A stretch of 64,000 bases of DNA from an uncultured Chloroflexia bacterium (GCA_963783765.1 CAWAOV010000002.1:18927-82926), one strand, 5' to 3'. Shown: positions 3,365-60,500, counted from the stretch's first letter. Translations and numbers: made by a program. The notes: a model not told the origin generated them from the sequence alone.

Positions 3365-3406
3365 TTATGGAGATAGAATATTCGTCAGCGCTGGATTTTT
3401 CACCTC

Positions 3407-4399: not shown

Positions 4400-5229
4400 G
4401 CTTCTTGCAGTTCTCCCCCTACCCATTCCAAACCTTCAACACGGGCTTCCCAATCCAGCAACAGCCTGATAACCTCCTGCAGGTCGGCCGGATCCCCTGT
4501 GGTGAGGAATGAAGTTTTTCCGTTTTCTCCACCGTTGGTCAGCAGATCATACTCGGTCAGCAGTCGTCCCGCTTGCCTGGCAATAGCTGGGGCAGGATCG
4601 ATCACCTGAACATTTTCTCCAACAATTTCCTTGATCAACGGAATCACAAAAGGATAATGAGTACAACCCATCACAACCTCATCCACCCCTTTTTCCAACA
4701 TCGGATCGAGTGCTTTTTTTAATATTTCCCTGGTCCTGGGGTGATCGATCTTTCCTTGCTCAATCAGTTCTACCAACCCGGGACAGGTATCCGGCAGAAT
4801 CTTGACTCCTTTTGCAAACCTTTCAACAGTGGATGCGTAGAGCGCTCCCTGGAATGTGGCAGGAGTGGCCAACACACCGACTATCCCTGTGCTTGTCTCT
4901 TCTGCTGCCGGTTTAACCGCCGGCTCCATACCCACAAAGGGAATCGCAGGATAGGATTTCCTAAGAATATCCAGAGCCACCGCAGAAGCAGTATTACAGG
5001 CGATGATAATCAACTTGACTTTTTCATTCAAAAAAAATCGAACAATACCTTCTGAAAAGTCAAACACCTCTTCCCTGGTACGTATTCCGTATGGTACATG
5101 GGCTTGATCGGCTATATATAACAGGTCCTCGGAAGGAAGTTGGCGCCGTACTTCCCTCAATACGGAAAGCCCCCCCACCCCGGAATCAAAAATCCCAATT
5201 GCTCGGTCTTGTTTTTTTATTCTTGCCAT
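4396..5229 (-). CDS. murI: Glutamate racemase
   Basis: IGIFDSGVGGLSVLREV, IIACNTAS, GCTHYP. The ORF extends to 5304, but MARIKKQDRAIGIFDSG at 5229 fits the family N-terminus and avoids overlap with the upstream gene. Confidence 0.9.
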   Translation of the reverse strand: MARIKKQDRAIGIFDSGVGGLSVLREVRRQLPSEDLLYIADQAHVPYGIRTREEVFDFSEGIVRFFLNEKVKLIIIACNTASAVALDILRKSYPAIPFVGMEPAVKPAAEETSTGIVGVLATPATFQGALYASTVERFAKGVKILPDTCPGLVELIEQGKIDHPRTREILKKALDPMLEKGVDEVVMGCTHYPFVIPLIKEIVGENVQVIDPAPAIARQAGRLLTEYDLLTNGGENGKTSFLTTGDPADLQEVIRLLLDWEARVEGLEWVGGELQEA

Positions 5230-5230
5230 C

Positions 5231-33755: not shown

Positions 33756-34457
33756 ATGTTCCCAAATCCAAGACTATTAAACCTGGCAAAAAAAAGCCGC
33801 CCCTGGTTGATCTTAACTATCAGCCTGGGGGTTTTTTCCGGCCTGCTGACCATTTTCCAGGCCCGGGCTGTCAGTCAGATCGTGAGCCGGGTTTTCCTGG
33901 ATTCAGAAAGCCTGGTCGATGTGAAGGGGCTGCTTCAGCTTACTCTGGTTCTATTCACCCTGCGGGCAGTGCTGGCCTGGGGCAGCAGCCTCAGCGGCAA
34001 AACTATTGCCGTTCAGGTTAAGAGCCGGGTCCGAAAACTGCTTTTGAATAAACTGGAAGAATTAGGCCCAGCCTATTTACAGGGAGAACAAAGTGGGGAA
34101 GTCAGCAACACAGTGGTTGAGGGGGTTGAAGCGCTGGATGCCTATTTCAGCCAGTATCTGCCCCAGCTGGTCTTATCTGCCCTTGTTCCGCTTACTATTC
34201 TGATCTTTGTCTTCCCCATGGACCTGCTCTCAGGATTTGTGATGCTGCTGACTGCACCGCTGATCCCTTATTTTATGTCCCTGATCGGCAGCCGGGCTAA
34301 AGCTATCACTGACCAACAATACAACACACTCAGCCGGCTTGCTGCGAGTTTTTTAGACAACCTGAACGGATTAACAACTTTAAACTCTTTAACCAGGCCA
34401 AAGCCCAAACTGAGAAGATCCGCCAAACCAGTGACCAGTATCGAAAAACAACCATGA
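33756..34457 (+). CDS. cydD: Thiol-reductant ABC exporter CydD, N-terminal fragment
   Basis: CydD-type TMD. The tail after LNGLTTL (NSLTRPKPKLRRSAKPV...) is out of frame. Confidence 0.75.
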   Translation: MFPNPRLLNLAKKSRPWLILTISLGVFSGLLTIFQARAVSQIVSRVFLDSESLVDVKGLLQLTLVLFTLRAVLAWGSSLSGKTIAVQVKSRVRKLLLNKLEELGPAYLQGEQSGEVSNTVVEGVEALDAYFSQYLPQLVLSALVPLTILIFVFPMDLLSGFVMLLTAPLIPYFMSLIGSRAKAITDQQYNTLSRLAASFLDNLNGLTTLNSLTRPKPKLRRSAKPVTSIEKQP

Positions 34458-35836
34458 AAGTTCTCCAGGTGACCTTTTTATCCGCCCTGGTCCTGGAGCT
34501 GCTGGCCACGCTCAGCACCGCAGTGGTGGCAGTGCAAATCGGACTGCGTCTATTATATTTTCAGGTCTCGCTGGAACAGGCTCTATTTTTATTGATCATT
34601 GCGCCTGAATTTTATATCCCCTTGCGGCTTTTAGGACTGCGTTTTCATGCCGGGATGGAAGGACAGAGCGCCGCAGAGCGCATCTTCCAGATCCTGGAAA
34701 GTGAACCCCTCTCAAAACAGACTGATAATCAAGATCTACAAAAGACATCTTTTGACGAAGTGCAAGAATTAACCTTCAAGGATGTCAGTTTCAGCTACCC
34801 TGGAGGCCGGGGAATTGCCATTAATGGGGTCTCATTCCAGATCAAGCGTGGTGAGCAGATTGCCCTGGTGGGCGCCAGCGGAGCTGGAAAAAGCACCCTG
34901 GCCAGCCTGCTGATGGGATTCTTTCCCCCCGGCGCAGGTGAGATTTTCATCAATGACATCAAATTGGACAACCTGGATCTGGAGGTATGGCGGGAGAGGA
35001 TCGCCTGGGTGCCCCAGAAACCGTCGCTGTTCCAGGGCACGATCGCTGCCAACATCCGCCTGGCCCGACCGGACGCGAGCGACAGCGCTGTGGCCGCAGC
35101 GGCTTCCGCTGCCCACCTGGCCGATTTTATCGAGAGTCTGCCGGAGGGCTACCAGACCCAAATCGGCGAAGGTGGGGCCCGCCTTTCCGGCGGGCAGGCC
35201 CAGCGCCTCGCCCTGGCACGGGCTTTCCTGAAGGATGCGCCGCTCTTGATCCTGGACGAACCCACTTCGCAGCTTGACCCGGTCACTGAATCCCAGCTGG
35301 CGGATGCCACCCGGGCCCTGATGGCGGGGCGGACCGTGATCACTATCGCCCACCGCCTGAACACTGTATTCCAGGCGGACAGGATCCTGGTGCTTCAAGC
35401 GGGAGAGATCATCGAATCTGGCACTCACAAAGAATTATTGGCCAAAGGTGAATCTTACCGTGAACTGGTGCAGGCCTATACTGGCTTCCAGAATATCCAT
35501 AATCTTGGGAATGCTGGCGATCAATGGATTAGACAGCGGATATGCTCCCCCGTCCTCAGTCTCCGGTCCTCCGATCGTAAATCAACCACCAGCTCTTCCA
35601 GAAAAAGAAAGCGCAGTATTCCTGCGTTTATTATCTTTCTTCAAACCCCATATCCGGGAAGTACTTGCCTCTGTTATGCTCGGAACCCTCACTATCGGGT
35701 CCAGTGTTGCTTTGATGGGCGCTTCTGCCTGGATCATTGCCATGGCAGCCTTACATCCCAATGTGGCTGTACTTCAGGTTGCCATTGTCGGCGTGCGTTT
35801 CTTTGGCATCTCCCGGGGAGTAAGCCGTTATTTTGA
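34454..35836 (+). CDS. cydD: CydD, C-terminal fragment (TM5-6 plus NBD); frame stays open past the expected stop
   Basis: The frame is open from about 34373 and reads KLFNQAKAQTEKIRQTSDQYRKTTMKVLQVTFLSALVLE. NBD motifs GASGAGKST, LSGGQAQRLALARA, LILDEPTS, TIAHRL. After ...YRELVQAY the sequence looks non-protein-like. Confidence 0.7.
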   Translation: MKVLQVTFLSALVLELLATLSTAVVAVQIGLRLLYFQVSLEQALFLLIIAPEFYIPLRLLGLRFHAGMEGQSAAERIFQILESEPLSKQTDNQDLQKTSFDEVQELTFKDVSFSYPGGRGIAINGVSFQIKRGEQIALVGASGAGKSTLASLLMGFFPPGAGEIFINDIKLDNLDLEVWRERIAWVPQKPSLFQGTIAANIRLARPDASDSAVAAAASAAHLADFIESLPEGYQTQIGEGGARLSGGQAQRLALARAFLKDAPLLILDEPTSQLDPVTESQLADATRALMAGRTVITIAHRLNTVFQADRILVLQAGEIIESGTHKELLAKGESYRELVQAYTGFQNIHNLGNAGDQWIRQRICSPVLSLRSSDRKSTTSSSRKRKRSIPAFIIFLQTPYPGSTCLCYARNPHYRVQCCFDGRFCLDHCHGSLTSQCGCTSGCHCRRAFLWHLPGSKPLF

Positions 35837-36545
35837 ACGGCTGGTTTCCCATAACCTGACATTTAAGATCCTGGGCCGGCTGCGGGTCTGGTTTTATGAG
35901 TCCCTTGTACCTTTGGCGCCAGCCAGGATCATGGCATTTCGTTCCGGTGATCTGCTGAGCCGGATCATCTCGGATATCAAAACCCTGGAAGATTTTTATA
36001 TCCGCTCTATTGCGCCGCCTTTTGTGGCCTGTTTGATCGGTCTGGGAACGGGGGCATTTTTATACTCATATCAGCCAATTCTGGGCCTGGTTCTGGGAGG
36101 GCTGTTCCTGGTCAGCGGGTTGATCATTCCCATCCTGGTCCGCTGGCTGGCACAGGAACCCGGGCGGATCCTGATCCAGGAAAGAAGCAGGCTCTCCGAA
36201 AATTTACTGGACTTTATAGGCGGCCTGCCTGATCTGCTGATCTTTGGCCAAACAGCAGAAAAGCGAAACCAGATCCAGGACCTGGACCGGAGCTACCTTA
36301 ACTATCAGCTGCGCTTAGCCCGCATCAGCGGACTGAATGCAGGTTTGTTGATCTTCTTCAGCAATCTGGGCCTGTGGTTGGTATTGGTTCTGGCGATCCC
36401 GCTGGTCCGATCCGGGGAAATCCCCGGCGTAGTACTGGCTGCCCTGGCATTGATTACCTTAAGCGCTTTTGAAGCAGTTCAACCCCTACCCCAGGCAATG
36501 GAAACGCTCTCCAGTTCCCTGGTTTCCGGGGCTCGACTATCTTGA
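35448..36545 (+). CDS. cydC: CydC, transmembrane-domain fragment
   Basis: FLRLLSFFKPHIREVLASVMLGTLTIGSSVALMGASAW..., six TM helices. The real start is unclear (candidate ATG at 35511). Ends out of frame at GARLS*. Confidence 0.7.
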   Translation: MNLTVNWCRPILASRISIILGMLAINGLDSGYAPPSSVSGPPIVNQPPALPEKESAVFLRLLSFFKPHIREVLASVMLGTLTIGSSVALMGASAWIIAMAALHPNVAVLQVAIVGVRFFGISRGVSRYFERLVSHNLTFKILGRLRVWFYESLVPLAPARIMAFRSGDLLSRIISDIKTLEDFYIRSIAPPFVACLIGLGTGAFLYSYQPILGLVLGGLFLVSGLIIPILVRWLAQEPGRILIQERSRLSENLLDFIGGLPDLLIFGQTAEKRNQIQDLDRSYLNYQLRLARISGLNAGLLIFFSNLGLWLVLVLAIPLVRSGEIPGVVLAALALITLSAFEAVQPLPQAMETLSSSLVSGARLS

Positions 36546-37351
36546 GGTACTGGATGCCGAGCCGGCTGTTGTTGATCCGGAAATCCCTTCCCTTTTTCCC
36601 GCTGATAGTTCCATCCATGCTCAAGGACCTGACTTTCAGGTATCCCGCCTCAAACTCGATTGTGCTGGATAAGATCAATTTTGAGCTCCAGGAAGGAAAA
36701 ACCTTCGCAATTGTAGGCCCCAGCGGGAGCGGTAAAACCACCCTGGGCAATTTGCTGCTCCGTTTCTGGGGAGATTATCAAGGGGAAATTTCCCTCGGCA
36801 CTGGTCAGATTGCCCTGGAGTCCCTCACCCAGGATGAGATCCGCCAGCATTTCAGCGTCATCTCCCAGGCAGGATATTTATTCCAGGATACGATCCAAAA
36901 TAATATCGCCCTGGGAAAGCCCGGTGCCAGCCGGGATCAGATTGTCCAGGCCGGTAAAACAGCCCGGATCCATGAGCTGATTAACAGCCTGCCGGAAGGA
37001 TATAACACCTCCATCGGGGAACAGGGCCGGGATTTCAGCGCCGGCGAAGCCCAAAGGATTAACATCGCCCGGGCAGTCTTAAAAGATGCGCCGCTATTTT
37101 TGCTGGATGAACCCACTGCCAACCTGGACCCCGTGACAGAAAAAGCCATTTTGGAAACCTTGTTTTATATCCTGGAAAACAAGACTGCCATTTTGATCAC
37201 TCACCGCCTGGTCGGGCTGGAAAACGTGGATCAGATCCTGGTCCTGGCTGGTGGAAAGATCATCGAGCGGGGATCTGAAAAAGAACTCCTGGCACTGGAT
37301 GGTTTTTACCGCCGGATGTGGGCAGCCCAAAACCGGATCCTGTCTTATTGA
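36542..37351 (+). CDS. cydC: CydC, nucleotide-binding-domain fragment
   Basis: Homologous from about 36626: DLTFRYPAS..., GPSGSGKTT, FSAGEAQRINIARA, LLDEPTANLD, ITHRL. Confidence 0.75.
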   Translation: MRYWMPSRLLLIRKSLPFFPLIVPSMLKDLTFRYPASNSIVLDKINFELQEGKTFAIVGPSGSGKTTLGNLLLRFWGDYQGEISLGTGQIALESLTQDEIRQHFSVISQAGYLFQDTIQNNIALGKPGASRDQIVQAGKTARIHELINSLPEGYNTSIGEQGRDFSAGEAQRINIARAVLKDAPLFLLDEPTANLDPVTEKAILETLFYILENKTAILITHRLVGLENVDQILVLAGGKIIERGSEKELLALDGFYRRMWAAQNRILSY

Positions 37352-40880: not shown

Positions 40881-40918
40881 AAAAAGGGAACATCCGGAGT
40901 TATCAAAACCTCCGGATG
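40881..40918 (-). terminator. Intrinsic terminator closing the 43974->40986 minus-strand gene string
   Basis: Minus strand: CATCCGGAG-10 nt-CTCCGGATG, then TTCCCTTTTT. Confidence 0.6.
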
Positions 40919-40985
40919 CCCTGACACCTGCCCCCCTCGTTGATTAGTCTTCTACAAAACTAATCTAAAAGCGAACATATATAAA

Positions 40986-41396
40986 TTAATTAATCATGAG
41001 AATATTCTTATTATCAAACTTGCCTGTCAATATTTCTATATCCATCAAAGTTAACAATATTATTCCAATTGAGGTAAAGGAAAAATAATAAATAACACTT
41101 TGCAACCCAATCACTAATAGAGCTAACGGGATTGTAATAATCCATGCCAAATCCAATAAATCCGGTCTTCCAATAAATAGTGATCTAACAATTTGGTTTA
41201 GAAAGTCAAAAGGAATAATACTGGAAACAATACTACAGATTACTGATGCGATTGCTACTTTCGAAAACCATTTACTATAATTGATTAATTTTTCTGGGTG
41301 ATAATGAAAATTCATATTCTTCTTGTCTTGAGAAATACTTACTCCCTGATATTTTCCAATGTTTTCTACAATTTTAACAAGAACCTCTAAAGCCAA
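40986..41396 (-). CDS. Small AT-rich membrane protein (candidate immunity-type protein)
   Basis: 136 aa from a TTG start (alternative ATG at MNFHYHPEK), 2-3 TM helices; sampled 60-nt lines are about 23-37% G+C. Confidence 0.4.
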   Translation of the reverse strand: MALEVLVKIVENIGKYQGVSISQDKKNMNFHYHPEKLINYSKWFSKVAIASVICSIVSSIIPFDFLNQIVRSLFIGRPDLLDLAWIITIPLALLVIGLQSVIYYFSFTSIGIILLTLMDIEILTGKFDNKNILMIN

Positions 41397-41404
41397 AGAT
41401 ATCC

Positions 41405-41653
41405 TTAAGAATCAACCAAACAGAGATCCCAATCATTAGAGATTTCAACTTCTCCAAACACTACAGTAGCAATATAGAGTATCGGTCTTTTCTGAGTGAT
41501 AATAATCAACTCATATGGAATCGTTGCTATATAAAATACTTCACTAATAAACCCAAGAATAAACAAAGTAATAACAAACCAGGAGAGTTTATTTGCGTGC
41601 TTTGCTATTTTCATTAATTTATTAGAGTTTCTGAAGATTCCATTTTCATTCAT
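41405..41653 (-). CDS. Small AT-rich two-TM protein (candidate immunity-type protein)
   Basis: MNENGIFRNSNKLMKIAKHANKLSWFVITLFILGFI...ILYIATVVFG. The ORF opens at a TTG at 41665. Confidence 0.4.
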   Translation of the reverse strand: MNENGIFRNSNKLMKIAKHANKLSWFVITLFILGFISEVFYIATIPYELIIITQKRPILYIATVVFGEVEISNDWDLCLVDS

Positions 41654-41727
41654 CTCATTTTCCAATATCAGGCATCCAAATAATAGGGATTCTAATCAAA
41701 TTTATTAATTAAGGCCTATGTTCATGA

Positions 41728-42687
41728 CTAATCCTGTTTATGAAATTCATGAATTAGAAAACCTGATCTTTTACTATTAGAAACTAACTTGATATAAATA
41801 GTGTTGAGAGTATTTGGGATAATTTTATAATCAGGGTCTACAGGAATAGCACGGAAACTGCCGGATTCTATCCTAATTTTGTCAAAAATATCCGTTCCCG
41901 TTTGGAATTTTGGATAAATTTCTTCATATTCCTTCATTTGATGTGAGTTTTCAATATTTGATCCAATATTAATACCCTCAATTGTAAGAGTTTCATTCCC
42001 CTTATTAATTACAACAATATCGTCAATTTTCTGACCATCAGGAACATCAGAATACATAATGATAGCCTGTGCATCAGGTTTATAACTAGGACCCTGCAAT
42101 ATGTTAGTAGTATCCCTAACTAACACAAGGACCCTACTAATTAACTTAAATAATAACATTCCTGGTGTGCTGGCACCTCCCCCTCCTCCTGTATATCCGG
42201 AGTAACTATTTTCAACCTTTTCGATACCATATCCAGCTCCTGGACCTCCTTTCAGATATACAACATCACTTACTTCAAACTCCCTGTCTACCAATAATTC
42301 TTTGAGTCTTTCATCCTCATCACATAACTTCTTGATTTTTTGATCCACAACATCAAGGGAGGCCGTTTGATGTTTGGGAATTTCATCGTACCCAGCAACC
42401 ACCCTCACAGTCTCATACTGCGGCATCTCCCGGGTGACGATCTTGGTACCAACCTGGACCTGCCGGTCTTCAAATACGGGGATGGTCTCAGTAATGGTTT
42501 TGTACCCGGCCAGGACCTGTTTTTGTTCGAACCTGGGCACATTTTCTGTAACAGCCTTATATCCTGAGATAACCTTGACTTCTTTATATATAGGGACCTC
42601 AACAGAAATGGTTTTGGTGGATTTATAGGGTACCTGTTTGGTAATCGGCACTCGTTTCCAGCGAACTTGATTTTTATAACCGACCAC
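41728..42687 (-). CDS. 19-residue-repeat protein, C-terminal part: repeats 7-11, Gly-rich linker, AT-rich C-terminal domain
   Basis: VPIYKEVKVISGYKAVTEN / VPRFEQKQVLAGYKTITET / IPVFEDRQVQVGTKIVTRE / MPQYETVRVVAGYDEIPKH, then GGPGAGYG...GYTGGGGGASTPG, then about 150 aa with no recognised motif. Confidence 0.55.
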   Translation of the reverse strand: MVGYKNQVRWKRVPITKQVPYKSTKTISVEVPIYKEVKVISGYKAVTENVPRFEQKQVLAGYKTITETIPVFEDRQVQVGTKIVTREMPQYETVRVVAGYDEIPKHQTASLDVVDQKIKKLCDEDERLKELLVDREFEVSDVVYLKGGPGAGYGIEKVENSYSGYTGGGGGASTPGMLLFKLISRVLVLVRDTTNILQGPSYKPDAQAIIMYSDVPDGQKIDDIVVINKGNETLTIEGINIGSNIENSHQMKEYEEIYPKFQTGTDIFDKIRIESGSFRAIPVDPDYKIIPNTLNTIYIKLVSNSKRSGFLIHEFHKQD

Positions 42688-43012
42688 AAATCGTTTTCCG
42701 CCGATATATCTATAAATCCGGCACCCGCTGGGTGGTTTTTTTCCAGACCAGTTCTTTGACCGTTTTATAACGTGTGACCGGAATCTCTTTCTTCACCAGC
42801 CTGGTACCGGCCTTTACCTTCTTGGTGGTATAGATCGGGACCTGTTTTGTAACAGATTCAACACCTACCTGCACTCGCCGGGTTTCATATCGGGGAACCT
42901 TTTTCTTGATCCCCCTTATCCCCACTTTGACCTTTCTGGTCTCGTACACCGGGACTTCTACTTCTACTGTTTTTATCCCTCTGTAAACGGTTTTCTCTTC
43001 ATAGCGGGGAAC
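42370..43012 (-). repeat. Eleven tandem ~57-nt (19-aa) coding repeats, consensus VPxYExxxVxxGxKxVxxx
   Basis: The repeat register is visible in the translations of ORFs 42710..43054 and 41728..42687 and continues across their junction. Confidence 0.75.
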
Positions 43013-43054
43013 CTGGATCACTTCTGGTTCAAGGGGCGGCAATGGACCCGCCAC
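42710..43054 (-). CDS. 19-residue-repeat protein, N-terminal part (repeats 1-6)
   Basis: GTG start directly after an in-frame TAG, with AAGGA 4 nt upstream. VPRYEEKTVYRGIKTVEVE / VPVYETRKVKVGIRGIKKK / VPRYETRRVQVGVESVTKQ / VPIYTTKKVKAGTRLVKKE... Confidence 0.55.
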   Translation of the reverse strand: MAGPLPPLEPEVIQVPRYEEKTVYRGIKTVEVEVPVYETRKVKVGIRGIKKKVPRYETRRVQVGVESVTKQVPIYTTKKVKAGTRLVKKEIPVTRYKTVKELVWKKTTQRVPDL

Positions 43055-43974
43055 CTATTCCTTTGCGGCGGGGATTGGCCAGCTGTTTCCTCAATGCAGA
43101 AAAAACACGCGATTCCTTCAAATCTGCTGCTTGGTTCAAGGTTAGCGCTAAAGCGGATATAACACTGAATAATCCCATCCAGGGAAGGGTGGGATCCATA
43201 GCAGCTGTTGAACTGTTTTTCTGGGGAATCATACCGGAGCTGCCCTGAATTCCCCACAAGGAGAGGAACTCCTTCCTGGACAGGACCGATTTCTCCATGT
43301 GCAGGATCATAGATGTTAATCCAATCACCATCCGCGGAAATTCCTGTCAGGGTTACAAAATGGCCTGGCTGTTCAGACCCATTGGTTCCCAGGGAGACAA
43401 CAACAGGTTTGGCTTGTCGTAATACCTCAGCCAGTTTCTCAAAACTCCAATCCTGGAAGAAGTAGCTTCCTTTAAAACCGATTTCCCTGGCTGCAAAAGT
43501 CAACTCCTCTATACCTGTACCCCAGTCATACATCAAGCCGCGAGCCGCTAAAAAGCTGCTCAGCTGGTTCAGGGTTGTTTCAGGTATTTTTTCAGCCGGA
43601 TTAAGCATATAAAGTGCATGGGCCAGGGCTGAAGGACCGCAGTTAACATCACTAAAGTCCCTGGCAGGGGTATTATCCACGATCACCTGCTCAGATGTAT
43701 GAGGTTCCAGGGCCACAAATGGTGGAGAATCCAATAAAACAGGCAAGGAAATATCAACCGGGGAAAAACTGTCGGAGGGATGGGTCTCCCCCACATTTCC
43801 CTCCGACAGAACCACATCCGGGTTGATCCCGGATATCACTGGCGCGGTGATCCAACCCGTCGGCTGCGGAGTGGGCGAAGCGAGAGGATCCACCCCTGCA
43901 AAAACGAGATCTGGACCAGCTGCCGCCGCCAATAATAAAAACAAAATACATGGAAAAAGGATCTTTTTGGCCAA
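43018..43974 (-). CDS. Secreted C39-like (papain-fold) cysteine peptidase; 3' third frame-disrupted
   Basis: TTG start after AGGGGG; signal peptide ILFPCILFLLLAAAAG; catalytic-Cys context DVNCGPSALAHAL; His context QPGHFVTLTGI. After DPAHGE the family-like sequence SVLSRKEFLSLWG continues in the frame of ORF 43029..43331. Confidence 0.6.
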   Translation of the reverse strand: MAKKILFPCILFLLLAAAAGPDLVFAGVDPLASPTPQPTGWITAPVISGINPDVVLSEGNVGETHPSDSFSPVDISLPVLLDSPPFVALEPHTSEQVIVDNTPARDFSDVNCGPSALAHALYMLNPAEKIPETTLNQLSSFLAARGLMYDWGTGIEELTFAAREIGFKGSYFFQDWSFEKLAEVLRQAKPVVVSLGTNGSEQPGHFVTLTGISADGDWINIYDPAHGEIGPVQEGVPLLVGNSGQLRYDSPEKQFNSCYGSHPSLDGIIQCYIRFSANLEPSSRFEGIACFFCIEETAGQSPPQRNRWRVHCRPLNQK

Positions 43975-44154
43975 GAATAACCCCCTGAAGTTACTGATTT
44001 GGCAGATTTGGATCTACAACGGTACTCTCTGTTTACTATCAACCTGGAAGAGTAATGAACCCCTATTTATCCAGGTGTATCGTCAGTGTACAACGGGCAA
44101 ATTTTGAAGTCAATAGGGCAGGGATTTGGGATTTTTGCTGGGTAACTTTAAACA

Positions 44155-44185
44155 GGAAACGGTTTCCTTGAAGGAAACCGTTTCC
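44155..44185 (-). terminator. GGAAACGGTTTCC-family nested-palindrome hairpin, copy 1
   Basis: GGAAACGGTTTCCTT-G-AAGGAAACCGTTTCC with perfect 15-bp arms, 30 nt downstream of the stop at 44215. Confidence 0.6.
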
Positions 44186-44214
44186 GCTACATGATATTCT
44201 TTTATGGGCCTGGA

Positions 44215-44445
44215 TCAGTCGTCAGATTCCTCGTCTTCTTTGTCCTCTTTATTACCCTCGTCTTCCTGATCTTCTTCACCACTTGAGCTGCCACTGGAAT
44301 CGCTGTCATCATCGCTTGAGCTGTCGCTGCCATCATCCTCAGAGTCATCATTCATATCATCATCAGAGTCATCATTCAGGTCGTCGCCGGAATCGTCATC
44401 CATCTCATCATCGGAGTCATCTATCCATGTCATCGTCCGAGTCAT
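44215..44445 (-). CDS. Anti-sigma-like protein, poly-Asp tail fragment
   Basis: Continues the DDSDDDMD periodicity of the upstream ORF once one nt near 44422 is removed. Confidence 0.6.
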   Translation of the reverse strand: MTRTMTWIDDSDDEMDDDSGDDLNDDSDDDMNDDSEDDGSDSSSDDDSDSSGSSSGEEDQEDEGNKEDKEDEESDD

Positions 44446-44560
44446 CGTTCAGGTCGTCATTGGAATCATCGTCCATGTCGTCATCGGAGTCATCGTCCAT
44501 GTCGTCGTCGGAATCATCGTTCATATCACCATCCAGATCAGCGCCTTCGCCGTAGATCTC
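44215..44560 (-). repeat. 24-nt (8-aa) coding periodicity DDSDDDMD, about 9 units
   Basis: DLDGDMND DSDDDMDD DSDDDMDD DSNDDLND DSDDDMD-D DSDDEMDD DSGDDLND DSDDDMND DSEDDGSD. Confidence 0.75.
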
Positions 44561-44995
44561 GAGGGCTAAAAGGGAGCCATCTGCCTGGGTCAGGGCTTCA
44601 ACCTTAACCAGGTCGCCAACTTCCAGGGCGCCTTTGAGCTCGGTCTGGGCATCCACGGCCACACTGATGCCGCTGACAACCCAGGTTCCTTCGCTTTTAA
44701 CTTCGATCAGGCCCCGGAATTCCACATCCTCTTCCCGGCCTTCACCCAGAAGGGATTCAACCTCATCCAATCTCTCATCTTCGAATTCAGATTCCAATTC
44801 CTGGCGGGTACCATCATTAAAGGACAGGGCTAGGCGGGCCTGTTCCCAGCCCCGTTTTAAACCGTACAGGCCGTCACCGGGCAAACTGGAGGCCGAGGCG
44901 TTGACCGTAAAGAACCCTGCGATCAGGACTGTCATTACTCCATAGATAGCTAAACGCGGTAAAAATTTCATTTCTGCATTCTCCTTTCCAACCAA
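44417..44995 (-). CDS. Anti-sigma-like protein, TM helix plus DUF5666-like beta domain plus start of poly-Asp tail
   Basis: KFLPRLAIYGVMTVLIAGFFTVNASASS aligns with the TM of paralogue 51090..52082. GLIEVKSEGTWVVSGISVAVDAQTELKGALEVGDLVKVEALTQADGSLLALEI resembles DUF5666. Confidence 0.6.
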   Translation of the reverse strand: MVGKENAEMKFLPRLAIYGVMTVLIAGFFTVNASASSLPGDGLYGLKRGWEQARLALSFNDGTRQELESEFEDERLDEVESLLGEGREEDVEFRGLIEVKSEGTWVVSGISVAVDAQTELKGALEVGDLVKVEALTQADGSLLALEIYGEGADLDGDMNDDSDDDMDDDSDDDMDDDSNDDLNDDSDDDMDR

Positions 44996-45309
44996 TAAAC
45001 TACCAATATTTTTGAACCACTGTCCTGAATAACGGGAGACTTCTTGGATTTTGTTCCGTTTTTGGTAAAAGCCCCAGAGGTTTTCATCCGGTCGACCTCA
45101 ACCAGCAGGCGGTTCCGACCTTCCCTCATCGATTTCTGATAGTCAGTTTCCGGCAGGGACCAGGCCGATAACGCGGCCTGAAGCAGCGGTTCTAACTTTT
45201 CTGAATAGCGGGGGTTTTCTTTCAGGATCTCCTGTAAAGAAACATCAGCTTCCAGCTGGGTCAGGCTTTTTTCCAGTATTAGTTCAAACTCTCTTTTCTT
45301 CATATACAA
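44968..45309 (-). CDS. Anti-sigma-like protein, cytoplasmic N-terminal fragment
   Basis: MYMKKREFELILEKSLTQLEADVSLQEILKENP... is paralogous to MFMMPRKFDRILEDCLSRMDRGESLIEILSVYP.... An ATGA overlap with the sigma gene stop is present. Confidence 0.6.
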   Translation of the reverse strand: MYMKKREFELILEKSLTQLEADVSLQEILKENPRYSEKLEPLLQAALSAWSLPETDYQKSMREGRNRLLVEVDRMKTSGAFTKNGTKSKKSPVIQDSGSKILVVYWLERRMQK

Positions 45310-45587
45310 TTTTCCTCTACCAGTTTTTGTTCCAGAGACCTGAGGGCCCGATGCTGCAAGGAACGCACAGCCCGGTCACTTTTCTTCAGGAGCTGGATGA
45401 TCTTTGGCGTTGAAAATCCATTAATAAAGCGGTACACCAATAATTGCCTCTGTGTTTCCGGCAGCAATCTTAAAGCTTTCCTGAAACACTCCGCCCGTTT
45501 GATTGTTCTGGACTTGCTGATCAGGACGCAGGCCCTGATCTTCCAATACTTCATCCATGATCTGTACTTCTGCTTTTTTCTCCTCAA
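45300..45587 (-). CDS. ECF-type sigma-70 factor, region-4 fragment
   Basis: Homologous from about 45500: RAECFRKALRLLPETQRQLLVYRFINGFSTPKIIQLLKKSDRAVRSLQHRALRSLEQKL. Confidence 0.7.
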   Translation of the reverse strand: MRRKKQKYRSWMKYWKIRACVLISKSRTIKRAECFRKALRLLPETQRQLLVYRFINGFSTPKIIQLLKKSDRAVRSLQHRALRSLEQKLVEENCI

Positions 45588-45906
45588 GGCGGTAGTGGTC
45601 TATTACCATATTCCTGGCGATGGCATAAAGCCAGGCCAAAAAGGGACGGCCTCGATCAACATAAGCGGGTAATTTATTGAGCATGCGTATAAAAACCTCG
45701 GCGCTGATGTCTTCAGCAGTCTGTGAATCACTGACCCTGTAATAGATATAGTTGTAGACGGCCCTGTAATGGCTGTCATATAGATCAGCGATCGCTTTTT
45801 TATCGCCGCGCTGAGCGCGCCGGATTAATTTCTTTTCTTTGTTTTCATCCATGGATTTCATCCTGATTAACGGGAAAAACTCGGTTTTGTTCCGCTGGGT
45901 ACTCAA
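45421..45906 (-). CDS. ECF-type sigma-70 factor, region-2 fragment
   Basis: RAQRGDKKAIADLYDSHYRAVYNYIYYRVSD...FLAWLYAIARNMVIDHYR. The likely start is the SMD Met at 45852, by alignment with the paralogue. Confidence 0.7.
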   Translation of the reverse strand: MSTQRNKTEFFPLIRMKSMDENKEKKLIRRAQRGDKKAIADLYDSHYRAVYNYIYYRVSDSQTAEDISAEVFIRMLNKLPAYVDRGRPFLAWLYAIARNMVIDHYRLEEKKAEVQIMDEVLEDQGLRPDQQVQNNQTGGVFQESFKIAAGNTEAIIGVPLY

Positions 45907-45912
45907 AAAAAT

Positions 45913-45942
45913 GAAACGGTTCCCTGTGGAGGAAACCGTTTC
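45913..45942 (-). terminator. GGAAACGGTTTCC-family hairpin, copy 2 (one arm lacks a T)
   Basis: GAAACGGTTCC-ctgtgga-GGAAACCGTTTC; the minus strand is followed by T7. Lies downstream of the histidine-kinase gene. Confidence 0.65.
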
Positions 45943-46003
45943 CCTATTATTATATCAGAGATGGATGCGGGGTCCTGGAAGGGATCAGGCATCCTGGTTT
46001 AAA

Positions 46004-46306
46004 CTAGACAGCGACCGGCAGGGTAACCGTGAAGGCTCGTACCCTCCCCTTCCCGGCTTTCAACCAGATCGATCCGCCGTGGGCTGTCACCAGCTGGCGG
46101 GCAATGGCCAATCCCAAACCGCTGCCGCCGCTGGCCCGGCTGCGGCTTTTATCCCCTTTCCAGAAGCGGTCAAAAATAAATGGCAGGTCCCCGGGTTTTA
46201 TGCCTTGCCCGGTATCCTGAATAGTGACCAGCAGGGACGATTCATCCCGGGCTGTACTCAGGGTGATCTCTCCCCCCTCCGTTGTGTAGCGCAGGGCGTT
46301 ATTCAC
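46004..46306 (-). CDS. Sensor histidine kinase, HATPase_c fragment
   Basis: The frame is open from about 46362: DDLQVEGDWQRLDQVFGNLVNNALRYT (N box), DTGQGI, GSGLGLAIA. Confidence 0.8.
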   Translation of the reverse strand: MNNALRYTTEGGEITLSTARDESSLLVTIQDTGQGIKPGDLPFIFDRFWKGDKSRSRASGGSGLGLAIARQLVTAHGGSIWLKAGKGRVRAFTVTLPVAV

Positions 46307-46347
46307 CAGGTTGCCAAATACCTGGTCCAGGCGCTGCCAATCACCCT

Positions 46348-47304
46348 CTACTTGCAGATCATCCCGGTTTCAGGGTTCTCCAGGACCAGCGTGATCCCGC
46401 TTTCCTCTGCCCTGCCGCTGAAGCTGGTCTTTACGTCTTCCAGCAGCTCCCGGATCGACAGGGTCTGAAAGTGATAATCCAGTGTGCCGGATTCGGCCAT
46501 GGACAGGGTCTGCAGATCCTCCACCAGGCGCTGCAGCAGGCGGGTCTCTTCCAGCATGGATCGGAAATAGTCCGGGGAGGCCTCATAAACGCCGTCCAGG
46601 GCGCCTTCCAGGTTGCCCTGCAGAATGTGCAGGGGTGTGCGCAGCTCATGGGCGACATCAGCGGTCAGGTTTTGACGCTGGATCTCAGCGCCCTCCAGTT
46701 CATCCGCCATGTGATTAAAGGATTGGGCCAATTTCAGGAACTCGCGGTCGCCTTCTTCTTTGACCCGGACACTGAAATCGCCCTCGGATAAAGCCTCGGC
46801 CGCGCTCATCACATCCGCCAGGGGATTCACCCAGCGGCGCATACCCAATGAGCCAATGATCATACCGACGATTGGCACTAAAAAGGGGATGGCGCAGAAG
46901 GTCAGCCGCCGGAGTTCCTTGGAGCCTAATAATTCCTGGTTGCCGCCGATCACCAGGCCCAGCACCACACCCACGATCAGGATCGGAAGCCCCATGAATA
47001 CAAAGACGCCCAAAAAACGGAAGCCCATTTTGCGGCGCTGCTCCAGGTGGGGTTTGGCAAAATGCTCAAATCCCTTTTGCCAGGGAGGTCCATACGCACC
47101 CTTTTTCCAATCCTTATACCGCTGATGGGGAGGATGTGCTGACTGGGGCGGTGTTTTTTCATAACACTTCTCCCAGGAATTTATATCCAAAACCATATAC
47201 TGTCTGAATGTAGATCGGATCGGCTGGATCAGGTTCGATCTTTTTACGAAGATTTTTAATATGGGAGTCCACGCTGCGGTCCACCCCCTCAAAAACCACC
47301 CCAT
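46348..47304 (-). CDS. Sensor histidine kinase, TM/HAMP/HisKA fragment
   Basis: Two TM helices, HAMP, H-box ADVAHELRTPL. The upstream ~45 codons overlap the response-regulator gene and are probably not translated. Confidence 0.8.
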   Translation of the reverse strand: MGWFLRGWTAAWTPILKIFVKRSNLIQPIRSTFRQYMVLDINSWEKCYEKTPPQSAHPPHQRYKDWKKGAYGPPWQKGFEHFAKPHLEQRRKMGFRFLGVFVFMGLPILIVGVVLGLVIGGNQELLGSKELRRLTFCAIPFLVPIVGMIIGSLGMRRWVNPLADVMSAAEALSEGDFSVRVKEEGDREFLKLAQSFNHMADELEGAEIQRQNLTADVAHELRTPLHILQGNLEGALDGVYEASPDYFRSMLEETRLLQRLVEDLQTLSMAESGTLDYHFQTLSIRELLEDVKTSFSGRAEESGITLVLENPETGMICK

Positions 47305-47848
47305 GCAGGCGCTCCAGGAGCTGCTCCCGGCTTAAAGGCTGCCCTTCATGTTTGACCAGGGCTTCCAGCACCAGATATTCACTTCTGGTCAGGCGAACGA
47401 TCTCGCCGCTAAGTTTAACTTCCATTCTCTTAAGATCCAGTTCCAGATCACCCGACCGCAGGATCTCTTCACCCAGCAGATCCCCTTTAGCCCGGCGCAG
47501 TAAAGCCCGCACCCTGGCTACTAAAGCCCGGGGCGAGAAGGGCTTGGTGATGTAATCATCGGCGCCCAATTCCAGGCCGATCAGCTGATCGGTTTCCTCA
47601 GCCCGGGCCGTGAGCATGATGATCGGCACATCCGATTCCCGCCTCAGTGCCCGGCAGACATCCAGACCGTCCATGCCCGGTAACATCAGGTCCAGAACGA
47701 TCAGGTCAGGTTTTTCCTGGCGGGCAATGGCCAGCGCCTGGACGCCGTCCCCGCTGGTCAGTACTTTAAAGCCGTTATCAACCAGGTAATCTTTGGCCAG
47801 CTGGGTGATTTTGGGTTCGTCATCTACAACCAGGATGATTTCATTCAT
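47159..47848 (-). CDS. OmpR-family response regulator
   Basis: ILVVDDE, DLIVLDLMLPGMDG, winged-helix YIQTVYGFGYKF. Confidence 0.9.
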   Translation of the reverse strand: MNEIILVVDDEPKITQLAKDYLVDNGFKVLTSGDGVQALAIARQEKPDLIVLDLMLPGMDGLDVCRALRRESDVPIIMLTARAEETDQLIGLELGADDYITKPFSPRALVARVRALLRRAKGDLLGEEILRSGDLELDLKRMEVKLSGEIVRLTRSEYLVLEALVKHEGQPLSREQLLERLHGVVFEGVDRSVDSHIKNLRKKIEPDPADPIYIQTVYGFGYKFLGEVL

Positions 47849-47973
47849 ATCGTATGATCCAGATCTTTATTATTGGTAGGATAACACAGCTTTAGATTCC
47901 ATTTTTAGAGATCTCTGGCAAAACCAGATACGGGAGAATATCTCCCGTATCTGGTATCAAATGTACAACTGAT

Positions 47974-48426
47974 TTACTCGTCGCCCTCAGGTGGGGTCTC
48001 ATCTTCAGCTTCTTCCTTGATGGGATAGGCTGCCCAGGGGCCGCAATGGTGCGGGCCAAAGTGGTAGGGGTGGTGCTTGAATCTGTTATGCTTCCAGGCT
48101 TTCATTTCATCCCAATCGGGTCCACCTTCGGTTTTCCAGCGCTTGAACATCACCAATCCCACGATCGAAGTGATCAGTTTGATCAGCAGCATCCCGCCGA
48201 AAAAGATCACCAGCAAGGGCAGGAAGGATCCACCCATTGGAAAGTAACCTTTCATATGGGGGTAAAAATAGGGCGCTGTGATCTCGCCGCCCTCTACCGC
48301 CGCGCCCTGCAGGAATCCAGCCTGGAACGCGGAGCGGGCCATAAAGGTGCCGCCTGCAATCAGCAGGATCACCATAAAGATCTTGAATCCAATACCCCAT
48401 CCGGGGTTTCTGTAGAAAAACATCAT
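47974..48426 (-). CDS. Small membrane protein with His/Pro/Trp-rich and acidic C-terminus
   Basis: Two TM helices, then KHNRFKHHPYHFGPHHCGPWAAYP and EEAEDETPPEGDE. Confidence 0.4.
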   Translation of the reverse strand: MMFFYRNPGWGIGFKIFMVILLIAGGTFMARSAFQAGFLQGAAVEGGEITAPYFYPHMKGYFPMGGSFLPLLVIFFGGMLLIKLITSIVGLVMFKRWKTEGGPDWDEMKAWKHNRFKHHPYHFGPHHCGPWAAYPIKEEAEDETPPEGDE

Positions 48427-48550
48427 TACCTCCTCTTAGGTACTATTTAGCTTCTACAGGGACAGTATCCCCTTAAATTGTGGAGAAACGATGGAGGAGT
48501 TGGAGAAGAATTCAGTAATTTTTTAGGACTTTATTTGCTTAAATGAAAAA

Positions 48551-57532: not shown

Positions 57533-60500
57533 TTATCTGGAACTATTTCCCATCTGAACCCGCACTGTATGTTTAACAGGCTCGGATTCCAGAGGGATAT
57601 ATTTCTCCTCCAGGGTCCTGCCATCCAGATCTATGCTGGTTATGCCCTTCTGAACGTGTTCCGGATTCTGGATTTCTATGGCATAGATCGCGCCTTGATA
57701 GCGATAGTCGATCTTAAACCCATCCCACCAGTCGGGGATGACAGGATCAATATATAACCGGTTCCCACGCTTTTTAAAACCTAAAACTTCCTCGATCCAG
57801 ACTCGATACATCCAGGCAGCAGATCCGGTATACCAGCTCCAACCGCCCTGGCCGATTCTGCCAGGCAGCCGGTACACATCAGCCGCGACGACATAAGGTT
57901 CAACAGCATATTTCCAGGCACCAATCCCATCGCGGGCATGTTCAATAGGATTGAGGATCTGTAATAATTTCCCAACCTTGTTGCCATCACCCTTCCGGGC
58001 ATAGGCCATCGCCAACCACAACGCAGCATGGGTATATTGACCACCGTTCTCTCTTACGCCCGGAGGATACCCCCGGATATAACCCGGGGAGGGAGTGCTG
58101 ACATCAAACGGTGGGGTGAAAAGCAGAATTAGCTTTTCATCTAGCCGCACCAGCTGGCGCCAGGCGGATTCCAGGGCCCGCTCTTTGCGATCAGGATCGC
58201 CTGCCCCACTGATCCAGGGCCAGGATTGCGGCAAGGAATCAATCCGGGCTTCTAGATTGGCAGCTGATCCAAGCGGGCTGCCATCATCGAATGTTGCCCG
58301 CTGGTACCACTCCCCGTCCCAGGCCGAACTTTCAATATTGGTTTCGAGGGTAAGCGCGTGCCCGTGATAGTTTTCGGCGAGCTCGGTATTTCCCAGTAAT
58401 TTCGATAAATACTCCATAGAACCGAGGACTTCTATCAAGAACCAGCCCAGCCAAACACTCTCGCCCCGTCCTTTGGGCCCAACCCAATTCATGCCATCAT
58501 TCCAATCCCCTGTACCAATCAGCGGAAGTCCCCGCGGGCCTGTTGTGCGGCCGCGTTCAACTGCCCGCCGACAGTGCTCAAAAAGCGAGCCCAGCTCAGA
58601 TGAAATCTGTGGTTCCAGGAATATTTCATGTTGATCAGGTTCAAGTTCCGGGGCGAGCAAAAATGGAATCTGCTCCTGGAGAATGGCTTCATCACCAGTC
58701 ACCCGAACATATTGGGCAGTTAGATAAGGGAGCCATAAGAGATCATCCGAAATTCGGGAGCGTATTCCAGCCCCTCCGGGTGGATGCCACCAATGCTGAA
58801 CATCACCCTCTATATACTGCCGGCTGGCCGATAAAAGAATATGCTCGCGGGCCAATTCCGGGTTGGTTAATAAGAATGCAGCCACATCCTGCAGCTGATC
58901 CCGGAAACCAATAGCTCCTCCGGACTGATAAAAAGCGGAGCGCCCCCAAATCCGGCAGCTCAGACTTTGATAAAGCAGCCAGCGGTTCAGCATAAAGTCC
59001 ACTGAAAGATCTGGCGTTTCAACCTGAACTGTGTTCAGGATCCGATCCCAGAATTGGTGAGTTTCATCCAGCGCCTGATTCACAGCCAGCACCTCACGAT
59101 ATTTCCGGATCAGGTCACCAGCTTCCTGCTCCGTTCCTGTTTGGCCAAGGACACAGATCACGTCCACTGACTCACCAGGGGCAAGGGTAATCTTGGTCTG
59201 CAGAGCGCCGCATGGATCCAGCTCTGCACCAACCCGACCTGCCAGCTCGATCCTGCCCAGGGCATCAGGGTTTTGAGTAGATTTATTGCGCCCTAAAAAT
59301 AAGGTCCGGTCCCCGGTATAAGAACCAGCTTTGGGGCTGATCGAGGCAAAACTGACCCGCTCACTATAATCGGGGTGGTAGCGGTTGCGGGCAAAGATCG
59401 TCCTCAGCTTGGGATCCCATTCCGTGACGATATGCTGCTGGGTATCTTCGGTTTGTTCTCCGAGCGTCCACTCCACATAATAGGTAATGCTGAGTTTACG
59501 AGTTTTCCGGGAATCATTCAGCAAACTAAGTTTACTGATCTTAACCGGCTCTCCACCTTCTTCATCCGTGGGCACAAAAATAGTCAGGAGCTGTTCAATG
59601 GCATGGCTGTTATGCTCAAAACGGGAATATCCGGCCCCGTGGCTGATCCTGTAAGCATCCCTTTCGCGGATCGGACCGGCAGTTGGATTCCAGACTTTTC
59701 CACTTTGTTCATCCCGAATATAGATCATTTCGGAGTGGGGATCGAGCACGGGATCATTCGACCATTGGGTTAATCGATTTCTCTGGCTGTTCCCATACCA
59801 GGTGAAACCTGCCCCAGTTTCACTGACCAGGGTACCAAATTGCGGATTGGCGATGACATTGACCCAGGGGGCTGGGGTATTGGTATCCGGTCCCAGGTAA
59901 ATCACATATTCTCGGCCATCAGCACTAAACCCACCCAGGCTATTAAAATAGGGCAACTCCAAGAAGGGCAATTTTCGAGAGGGTGCTTCGTCGATCCGTT
60001 TGGTCTCCAGCGGAGCGGGGATCTCGACGGTCTCATACGGCACACTGATCTGCTGCGCCAAAGGTCCACGGGCGGCAATCAGGGATATCCGCGCGACTGA
60101 TTGGATCAGTGTTAGATCTTCCGTGGCGAGCTGGTCAACTGCCAGCAGGAATACAGCTCCTGATTGATCCTCTCCCGTATAGATGGACGAAGATTGGATC
60201 AACCGTTCCAACCTTTCCATCAGCGGCTGGTCATAAGTGCTTGATTCCTCATTAAGCACAACCAGATCTGTATACAATCCATGCTGGCGCCAATAAGCCT
60301 GGGCCTGGAGCATTTGCCGGACAAGTCCCAAATCCCCCACATCAGAAATGGTTATTAATAAGACAGGCAGGTCTCCAGATATACCAAAAGGCCACAGGCT
60401 TGATTGTCCTTTCCGATTGGCTGCTATACGCTCGGTCGGTGGGCGCAAATAGTCTGAGGGATATAACAAATACCCGGCTAACTTTTGGAAGCGGCGGGCT

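Follow-up and report, generated by a model that had tools for sequence, protein, structure and literature searches.

Herein, a locus on the minus strand of a 64,000-nt stretch of DNA from an uncultured Chloroflexia bacterium (GCA_963783765.1 CAWAOV010000002.1:18927-82926) is described. The whole stretch is called the window, and positions are counted from its first letter. The host is an Anaerolineales (Chloroflexota) bacterium, and the locus is probably a polymorphic toxin/immunity operon of two genes with an undescribed scaffold. Gene 1 (41728..43974, minus strand) is read as three open reading frames (ORFs) in the window, and end-to-end alignment with intact homologues identifies it as a single gene for a polymorphic-toxin-like protein of 748 amino acids (aa). 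Gene 2 (40986..41665, minus strand) is read as two ORFs (41405..41665 and 40986..41396), and its homologues and tblastn matches identify one membrane protein of about 212 aa with five transmembrane (TM) segments. As judged from the sequence comparisons, this 5-TM protein is a candidate cognate immunity protein. The three comparative features that mark polymorphic toxins were all found, namely a constant head with variable tails, a tail that also occurs on another carrier, and a downstream gene that co-varies with the tail. A polymorphic toxin/immunity locus had been proposed in a preliminary description of the same DNA, and that proposal is now supported by the cassette variation among relatives, the occurrence of the module on Rhs proteins, and the same lipoprotein family beside it. 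The scaffold, the toxin module, and the candidate immunity families match no curated family.

Exchange of the C-terminal module and its partner gene

Thirty-nine related loci were found in species genomes and metagenomes and, where named, all belong to Anaerolineales/Chloroflexota. The conserved order of the genes is an extracytoplasmic function (ECF) sigma factor, a small ORF, a DUF5667/5666 gene, gene 1, the variable segment, an 81-aa LysM protein, a 200-aa protein, and a DUF4332 gene on the opposite strand. This order is common to Anaerolineales metagenome-assembled genomes (MAGs) and metagenome contigs; the link to the ECF sigma factor is lost in distant family members. By blastn, DNA homology of the window runs from 45976 to 41989 against the loci L002 and L003 and from 48553 to 42401 against L001, and it restarts at 40938 in both comparisons. 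The breakpoint at 40938 is a terminator hairpin, read from the sequence and the RNA fold as a 10-bp stem CATCCGGAG...CTCCGGATG followed by a T-rich tract (40900..40938, minus strand), and the homology with all close relatives restarts exactly at this hairpin. The variable AT-rich cassette defined by these alignments is 40939..42400, of which 40939-41989 is variable against L002/L003 and 40939-42400 against L001. The variable segment was AT-rich in all 14 loci examined, with a G+C of 0.33-0.43 vs 0.45-0.60 in the flanks. Within the window, the G+C is about 0.49 in 42401-43974, 0.39 in 41990-42300, and 0.30 in 41728-41989 and the small-ORF region, with 0.48 for the window as a whole. The fall in G+C along the locus, noted in the preliminary description from sampled lines, is borne out by this computed composition.

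The C-terminal toxin-like module of the window (41731..42285, minus strand) is AT-rich and extends to residue 748. It was recognised by alignment A4, by AlphaFold2 and Foldseek, and by its sharing with Rhs proteins. Its distal half (41731..41991, minus strand) is hypervariable and co-varies with the downstream gene, and the DNA homology to L002/L003 stops at 41989/41990. L002 and L003 are the closest relatives, with scaffolds 75-92% identical to that of the window; the distal half of their module differs (about 30% identity), and a lipoprotein gene replaces the 5-TM gene. In L001, the entire C-terminal domain is switched from 42,400. The proteins P0005 and P0006 of more distant relatives, about 60-66% identical, carry the distal half of the window (52-58%) together with the 5-TM partner. 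Two classes of tail stand on scaffolds that are 75-90% identical in alignment A1. The class-1 tail contains ...YLKGGPGAG..., a Gly-rich loop, a helix LVWxRDxT, KPDAQAII..., and a β-domain ending in SxRSGF. The class-2 tail reads PPTGFS... and ends in CxTKTIKTEG and a strong TM helix.

Close homologues share 63-71% identity with the window over the proximal half of the class-1 tail. Over the distal 87 residues, the identity is 52-58% for the two proteins with a 5-TM partner and 25-37% for those with a lipoprotein partner, which include the scaffolds closest to the window. The distal-half identity thus tracks the partner even on the closest scaffolds, and this indicates that the type of module changes together with its partner, independently of how closely the scaffolds are related. 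Distant members, at 33-36% identity, retain the peptidase, the helix, and the basic β-rich region. Their tails, often placed after Pro/Thr-rich linkers, are Gly/Ala-zipper TM hairpins, a second Peptidase_C39_2 domain (E = 1.6e-10), and others. A search with the class-2 tail found a single 279-aa protein and zero other carriers, and a module scan of species genomes returned only three already-known Anaerolineales loci. The C-terminal domain and the small downstream genes, whose conservation among relatives the preliminary description had counted as a point against a toxin locus, are not conserved across relatives.

The genes downstream of the module fall into several families. The 5-TM partner accompanies the distal half of the window type in 3/3 loci (the window, L017, and L052). 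The other class-1 distal halves (L002-L005, L008, L010, and L020) are followed by a lipoprotein of about 165-178 aa, which has a lipobox cysteine, and L051, with a 170-aa partner, is probably lipoprotein-paired as well. The partner of class-2 modules is a ~340-aa lipoprotein with a PD40 β-propeller or, in L001, a CPBP/Rce1-like membrane protein. The CPBP/Rce1-like family has been linked to bacteriocin immunity. Pfam and NCBIfam gave zero matches for the C-terminal module, the 5-TM protein, the ~170-aa lipoprotein, and the class-2 tail; the exceptions among the partners were PD40 in the 340-aa partner and Rce1-like in the L001 partner. The PD40 lipoprotein (about 320-340 aa) was also seen after two types of tail, class 2 and the second C39 peptidase (L044 6831-7793; also L022, L025, L026, and L033). 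It may be a partner of broader specificity, or no immunity protein at all. In L017, the only other long contig with a 5-TM partner, an extra 2.9 kb (2560-5437) lies between the partner and the LysM gene and includes a 613-aa ORF on the opposite strand.

The strongest evidence came from outside this family of proteins. A profile of the class-1 module (A4, 189 positions) was searched against 1.84 billion representative proteins, and 49 matches were found at E <= 1e-3. In many of them, the full module occupies the extreme C-terminus, directly after ...YDPxLGRFxxxD...NNPxxYxDPxGH. The Rhs-associated core TIGR03696 was detected just upstream of the module in 9/10 of the proteins tested (35-75 bits, cut-off 32.5). 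Pairwise BLASTP of the window module against one protein, P0085, gave E = 1e-6. In polymorphic toxins, the part that follows the Rhs core is the exchangeable toxin (PMC3482391). At each of the three Rhs loci examined (L045, L049, and L050), the product of the next gene belongs to the lipoprotein family of the Anaerolineales class-1 loci, with blastp E = 1e-13 to 1e-34 between the two groups and with the lipobox and the motifs conserved. The G+C falls at these loci as it does in the window, from 0.53-0.56 over the Rhs part to 0.39-0.45 over the module and 0.38-0.41 over the partner. The residues common to the module on both carriers are LxGGPG, the glutamate of AE[DE], RDxT, P[DE], N-x-[SG]-x-E, [YF]P, PG, and S-x-R-x-G. 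Movement of a module-plus-partner pair between unrelated carriers is the defining behaviour of a toxin/immunity cassette. The sharing of the module and the lipoprotein with Rhs proteins is the decisive result for the polymorphic toxin/immunity reading.

The order of elements in the module, from alignment A4 and the model, is an (FEVSDVVY)LKGGPG motif, a Gly-rich loop, a hydrophobic helix ...LVxVRDxT, and an immunoglobulin (Ig)-like β-sandwich ending in S-x-R-x-G. In the AlphaFold2 prediction for the window's own ORF, a small β-hairpin at VVYL is followed by a hydrophobic helix of 19 residues and an Ig-like β-sandwich; the mean predicted local distance difference test (pLDDT) score was 62.6, with 76-85 in the β-domain. 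The preliminary description had pointed to HHpred or Foldseek as a check on this domain; Foldseek was applied to the module model and returned generic Ig-like β-sandwiches only (ApaG, TRAP-β, archaeal pilin, and the Kir cytoplasmic domain), without a recognisable enzyme fold. Homology to archaeal pilin or ApaG was not accepted.

A helix followed by an Ig-like β-sandwich without a catalytic fold would also suit a surface recognition or adhesion module, used in kin recognition or in the evasion of phages or predators. The partner would then be a receptor, a chaperone, or an anchor, and the variation would reflect diversifying selection on an exposed Ig-like domain. The close clade has only a few types of cassette, the partners belong to the envelope (lipoprotein, 5-TM protein, and PD40 propeller), and the locus is core and syntenic and is not an island, all of which would be in keeping with such a role. 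However, on Rhs proteins the module takes the place of the toxin behind the Rhs core (TIGR03696), and the conserved small lipoprotein lies directly downstream; in other family members, the toxin position is occupied by Gly-zipper membrane hairpins or by a second C39 peptidase; and one of the partners is CPBP/Rce1-like. A surface recognition module is therefore considered unlikely, and the module is discussed below as a candidate toxin. Its target would be the envelope or the membrane, because all the partners are envelope proteins (lipoproteins, 5-TM, and CPBP-like proteins).

Frame breaks in the window copy

The five minus-strand ORFs reported in the preliminary description were all found again (43018..43974, 42710..43054, 41728..42687, 41405..41665, and 40986..41396), and the flanking terminators reported there are present as hairpins at both ends (44154-44185 upstream and ~40900-40938 downstream). 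The ORFs stand, but the number of genes does not: the five ORFs represent two genes. Gene 1 is split by single-base insertions at about 43292, 43052, and 42717, as determined by three-frame translation and alignment to relatives. The conceptual 748-aa fusion of its frames was used as the query for a homologue search, and 66 matching proteins were found. The top homologues are intact proteins of 738-749 aa, with 99-100% query coverage and 59-63% identity; further homologues at 66-81% identity are truncated or bear another tail. The corrected protein aligns with its homologues across all three frame junctions. A single correction near 43040-43055 had been suggested to fuse the peptidase ORF to the repeat ORF; two corrections are needed, because the tail of the peptidase ORF is off-frame from 43292 and the second break lies at 43052.

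Gene 2 is broken near 41441 and 41402. Its intact homologues P0113-P0115, 5-TM proteins of 212-230 aa, match 41647-41441 and 41402-41013 in different frames (tblastn, two high-scoring segment pairs), and residues 70-82, which are missing from these pairs, are encoded in the third frame. Comparison with P0113-P0115 shows that the two small multi-TM genes of the preliminary description belong to a single 5-TM gene of about 212-230 aa. For the two genes together, five frame breaks (43292, 43052, 42717, ~41441, and ~41402) replace the three counted earlier. Both genes are intact in relatives, and the same order of genes is intact in L052 and L017.

Frame breaks of this number raise the question of decay. 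The whole unit of sigma factor, DUF5667, toxin, and immunity genes could have been inactivated by frameshifts in this strain. The clustering of the breaks would favour such a dead locus: at least nine were counted between ~41,400 and 46,350, with about 1.75 per kb in 41,990-45,976 vs about 0.5 per kb in the flanks, and the affected genes all lie in one syntenic unit. The nature of the breaks speaks against it. In the alignment of the window with the three relatives L001-L003, 7/7 aligned breaks upstream of 41,990 are window-specific insertions of 1-2 nt (45497, 45038, 44422, 43292, 43052, 42717, and 44065), and the one at 44065 falls in an intergenic region. After frame correction, zero in-frame stops or nonsense substitutions were found in about 4 kb. 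The nonsynonymous/synonymous ratios on the window lineage, 4/15 with four taxa and 21/36 with three taxa, are as low as or lower than those of the intact relatives. The substitution pattern indicates purifying selection, as read from these sequence counts.

The other assemblies point in the same direction. Relative contigs of long-read style carry equal or far greater numbers of lineage-specific indels that are not a multiple of three; L001 has 75 such frameshifting indels in one 5-kb housekeeping stretch of flanking genes. L003 is a MAG of the Microflora Danica project, in which deep Nanopore sequencing was used (PMC12313526). The short-read assembly L052, with the same locus type, is intact. 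Because all aligned breaks are 1-2-nt insertions, nonsense changes are absent, and the pattern is one of purifying selection, the five frame breaks of the window copy are most likely long-read consensus errors and not decay, and a dead locus is unlikely. As a practical warning, two intact genes can hide behind five broken ORFs in a long-read MAG.

Architecture and proposed mechanism of the large protein

The residue numbers below refer to the frame-corrected 748-aa protein, and all of its parts are encoded on the minus strand. The N-terminus is a signal-peptide-like segment, MAKKILFPCILFLLLAAAAGPDLVFA/G (residues 1-27, 43894..43974), which was read from the sequence, is kept in the homologues, and resembles a Sec-type signal peptide. 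It is followed by a Pro-rich linker (residues 28-100, 43675-43893) and by a C39-like papain-fold cysteine peptidase domain (residues ~101-255, 43212..43674), which was identified by Pfam, by its invariant triad, and by Foldseek. The ORF 43018..43974 matches Pfam Peptidase_C39_2 (PF13529) with 27.2 bits (cut-off 24) and Peptidase_C70 (PF12385) with 29.6 bits (cut-off 19). The catalytic residues are Cys112 (43639-43641) in NCGP, His205 (43360-43362) in GHFVTLTG, and Asp223 (43306-43308), and all three are invariant among homologues. A full-length AlphaFold2 model was built on the intact homologue P0003 with a 53-sequence alignment, and its peptidase domain is confident (pLDDT 80-90). Foldseek matched the peptidase domain of the model to 3erv, the HlyB C39-like domain 3zua, ComA 3k8u, and PCAT1, with a probability of 1.0 and a target TM-score of 0.59-0.70; a PDB sequence search with the domain gave no useful matches. 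The C39-like papain-fold peptidase of the preliminary description is thus confirmed by Pfam matches over the cut-off and by the invariant Cys/His/Asp triad.

The 11 basic 19-residue VPxYE repeats described there were also found. The repeat stalk (residues ~318-535, 42370..43024; repeat analysis and AlphaFold2) has nine strict [VIM]PxY anchors at 19-aa spacing and additional degenerate units, about 11 units in total, with a net charge of +28. In the P0003 model, the repeats form one two-stranded antiparallel β-hairpin with strands 318-423 and 426-532 (pLDDT ~78-88 in mid-strand), and the turn lies at an invariant YIGGKRF (YRYIGGKRF in the window, 42679-42714). The stalk is thus predicted by the model to be a single β-hairpin of 2×105 residues, about 210 in total, which is an unusual architecture. 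The repeat span is equal in length across nearly all close homologues, and the stalk therefore looks fixed in length and not variable. When Foldseek was run with the full-length model, pore-forming toxin stems (anthrax PA, CDTb, and lysenin) were matched by the long hairpin at a low probability of 0.05-0.21, and these matches were taken as a geometric coincidence. An acidic helical linker (residues 536-~600) leads from the stalk towards the module. The neighbouring DUF5667/5666 protein ends in a long Asp/Ser-rich acidic tail (44215-44995), and an electrostatic partnership of this tail with the basic stalk (42370-43024) is conceivable.

The topology of the protein turns on a helix between the peptidase and the stalk. 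This hydrophobic helix, DPxLPWMGLFxxISALALTLNQ (residues 261-283, 43128..43196), has invariant residues and is very strongly conserved, and it appears in the P0003 model as an isolated helix (262-284) of low confidence. Its Kyte-Doolittle value is 1.6-2.0 vs 2.3-3.0 for the C-terminal anchors, and it either interacts with the membrane or forms a marginal TM helix. It is followed by a basic segment, RKQLxNPRRKGIGGG (residues ~296-310, 43047-43091). If the protein were bitopic or polytopic, the peptidase would lie outside and the basic stalk and the module would be cytoplasmic, and the protein could take part in envelope-stress signalling with the adjacent ECF sigma and anti-sigma genes. The position of RKQLxNPRRKG after the conserved helix agrees with the positive-inside rule, the strong TM helix at the end of class-2 modules is preceded by lysines, and the ECF sigma factor and DUF5667/5666 gene are conserved upstream in the close clade. 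Against a signalling protein of this kind, the helix is only marginally hydrophobic, Pro/Thr-rich linkers, which are typical of extracellular proteins, follow the stalk in distant members, the cognate partners are lipoproteins and the module is common to exported Rhs proteins, and the ECF linkage is gone in distant members. Such signalling is considered very unlikely, and an extracytoplasmic placement of the stalk and the module is favoured.

A possible processing site was noted at the start of the module. The motif FEVSDVVYLKGG/PGAG is invariant in class 1. It is hydrophobic at -4, -7, and -12 and acidic at -8, a pattern that fits the consensus of double-glycine leaders. The motif therefore resembles a double-glycine leader, and cleavage by the C39-like peptidase at this point is put forward as a hypothesis only. 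The β-hairpin, as modelled, would place the LKGG site beside the peptidase. Class-2 tails are without GG, and the Rhs-borne copies retain LxGGPG without any C39 domain; because of the latter, LKGG was downgraded as a C39 cleavage site.

For the preferred polymorphic toxin/immunity reading, the following mechanism is proposed. The gene 1 protein would be exported and then held at the envelope by its helix and basic stalk. The hairpin would fold back and return the C-terminus to the side of the peptidase. The N-terminal peptidase would process or release the C-terminal module, as is presumed for the constant peptidases of other polymorphic toxins. The released module would be toxic and would act on the membrane or envelope of neighbouring related cells, and the membrane or lipoprotein partner would protect the producers. 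Recombination would replace the AT-rich cassette of module and partner that lies between the conserved breakpoints, and new specificities would be created in this way.

Several points weigh against the polymorphic toxin/immunity reading. The window copy is broken as read, with its five frame breaks. The module has no recognisable toxin activity or fold, the Pfam, NCBIfam, and PDB sequence searches being empty and the model being of moderate confidence. Orphan module or partner cassettes were not found when all module and partner types were compared with the whole window by tblastn, which returned only the one locus. The 5-TM partner is confined to this family, with three homologues in 5.8 billion proteins, and was not seen beside the Rhs copies, so that its immunity role is argued from its position and co-variation. 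If the conserved helix were a true stop-transfer TM helix, the stalk and the module would be in the cytoplasm, because the basic segment comes next, and this would clash with a secreted toxin. The LKGG motif may be a mere part of the module and not a cleavage site.

Polymorphic toxins are classed by their N-terminal trafficking or processing domain. The constant part described here, from the signal peptide through the peptidase and the helix to the strongly basic hairpin of fixed length, could be an unrecognised trafficking or delivery device for polymorphic toxins in monoderm, filamentous Chloroflexota, with a rigid envelope-spanning hairpin rod of about 30 nm or a β-tube, and with the peptidase releasing the tip at the base. 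This is a speculative and doubtful proposal; if it is true, the device adds one mode to the eight listed in 2012. The carrier itself would be new, and it was confined to Anaerolineales/Chloroflexota in the searches made. Anaerolineales/Chloroflexota are abundant in soils, sediments, and wastewater. A search of a literature library found no paper linking Anaerolineae to polymorphic toxins or describing the gene 1 architecture, the module, or the partners. The locus defines a new family of C-terminal toxin modules common to Rhs proteins and two new candidate immunity families, the ~170-aa lipoprotein and the 5-TM protein. Because a conserved proximal half is joined to a distal half that is exchanged along with the partner, the locus is a tidy system for mapping immunity specificity.

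Neighbouring genes and comparison with known systems

Upstream of gene 1, a sigma-70-like promoter match, TTGACT-17-TACACT (44085..44113, minus strand), was found by consensus match only. The upstream boundary is a hairpin with a perfect 14-bp palindrome (44154..44185, minus strand; RNA fold -23 kcal/mol, z = -6.6), with copies in L001 and L002, and it is terminator-like, by its sequence, for the preceding DUF5667/5666 gene. The palindrome GGAAACGGTTTCC...GGAAACCGTTTCC occurs at 44154-44185 in the window, at 5330-5361 and 9793-9822 in L001, and at 3057-3087 in L002 (intergenic), and these copies may represent a dispersed, terminator-like repeat. The DUF5667/5666 gene is split by the insertion at 44422 into a 192-aa part and an ORF for a 76-aa acidic tail (44215..44445). 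The 113-aa ORF 44968..45309 carries the window-specific insertion at 45038. In the ECF sigma factor gene, region 2 is encoded in 45421..45906 and region 4 in 45300..45587, with the window-specific insertion at 45497.

A two-component system (45977-48547), which comprises a response regulator (47159..47848), a histidine kinase (46348..47304), and a 150-aa ORF, is present in the window and L001 and absent from L002 and L003. From this distribution, the region reads as an insertion/deletion polymorphism adjoining the sigma/toxin unit. The histidine kinase gene (46004-47304) is itself split, with HAMP and HisKA in 46348..47304 and HATPase_c in another frame (46004..46306); the break lies near 46310-46350. 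Window-specific single-base insertions were also seen at 36539 and 36620 in the ABC-transporter region, which is one 967-aa gene in L002 and several overlapping ORFs in the window. A 2103-aa minus-strand ORF (57533-63844) is intact despite the indel-prone assembly. No tRNA genes were found anywhere in the 64-kb window. In L043 (3062-8033), the gene for the distant member P0050 lies directly upstream of three unknown genes, which are followed by Tad-pilus-like genes (SAF/CpaB-like, ParA/CbiA-like ATPase, and T2SSE ATPase).

Four groups of known systems were compared with the locus. The CdiA/CdiB systems are alike in that a long β-rich stalk bears a polymorphic C-terminal toxin and the cognate immunity gene lies downstream. 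However, the window locus is without a two-partner secretion (TPS) domain, filamentous haemagglutinin (FHA) repeats, a CdiB partner, or a VENN-type demarcation, and its host belongs to Chloroflexota.

The double-glycine bacteriocin systems with PCAT/ComA-type exporters share the peptidase fold and the catalytic triad, have a leader similar to the F-x2-S-D-V-x2-L-x-G-G found just upstream of the window module, and have partners that include small multi-TM and CPBP/Rce1-like proteins. Unlike these exporters, the window protein has no ABC transporter domain, its peptidase follows a signal peptide and is presumably extracytoplasmic, and its 'cargo' of about 180 aa is part of the same polypeptide. 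The nearest ABC genes (34454-37351) lie past the LysM, 200-aa, and DUF4332 genes.

The Rhs/YD-repeat toxins, such as those of the WapA type in monoderms, have the same plan of a constant carrier, an exchangeable C-terminal tip, a small downstream immunity gene, and a cassette of lower G+C, and the module family of the window itself occurs on Rhs proteins together with a common family of lipoprotein partners. The carriers are different: the window ORFs and P0003 are without YD/Rhs repeats, an Rhs core, or the DPxGH autoproteolytic motif, and the window carrier consists of a C39-like peptidase and basic 19-aa repeats.

In architecture, the locus comes closest to the PrsW-dependent, ZU5, and PVC-metallopeptidase classes. 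In these classes, a constant N-terminal peptidase precedes a variable C-terminal toxin, some members have a long filamentous spacer, and self-processing is presumed (Zhang et al. 2012, PMC3482391). The window protein is alike in its N-terminal peptidase and variable C-terminal toxin-like module. In the 2012 survey, C39-like domains are listed as C-terminal toxin domains only (Tox-PL-C39) and not as a constant N-terminal element (PMC3482391). The peptidase of the window is not a multi-TM PrsW, ZU5, or metallopeptidase domain; it is a soluble papain-fold C39-like domain placed behind a signal peptide at the constant N-terminal end of the protein.

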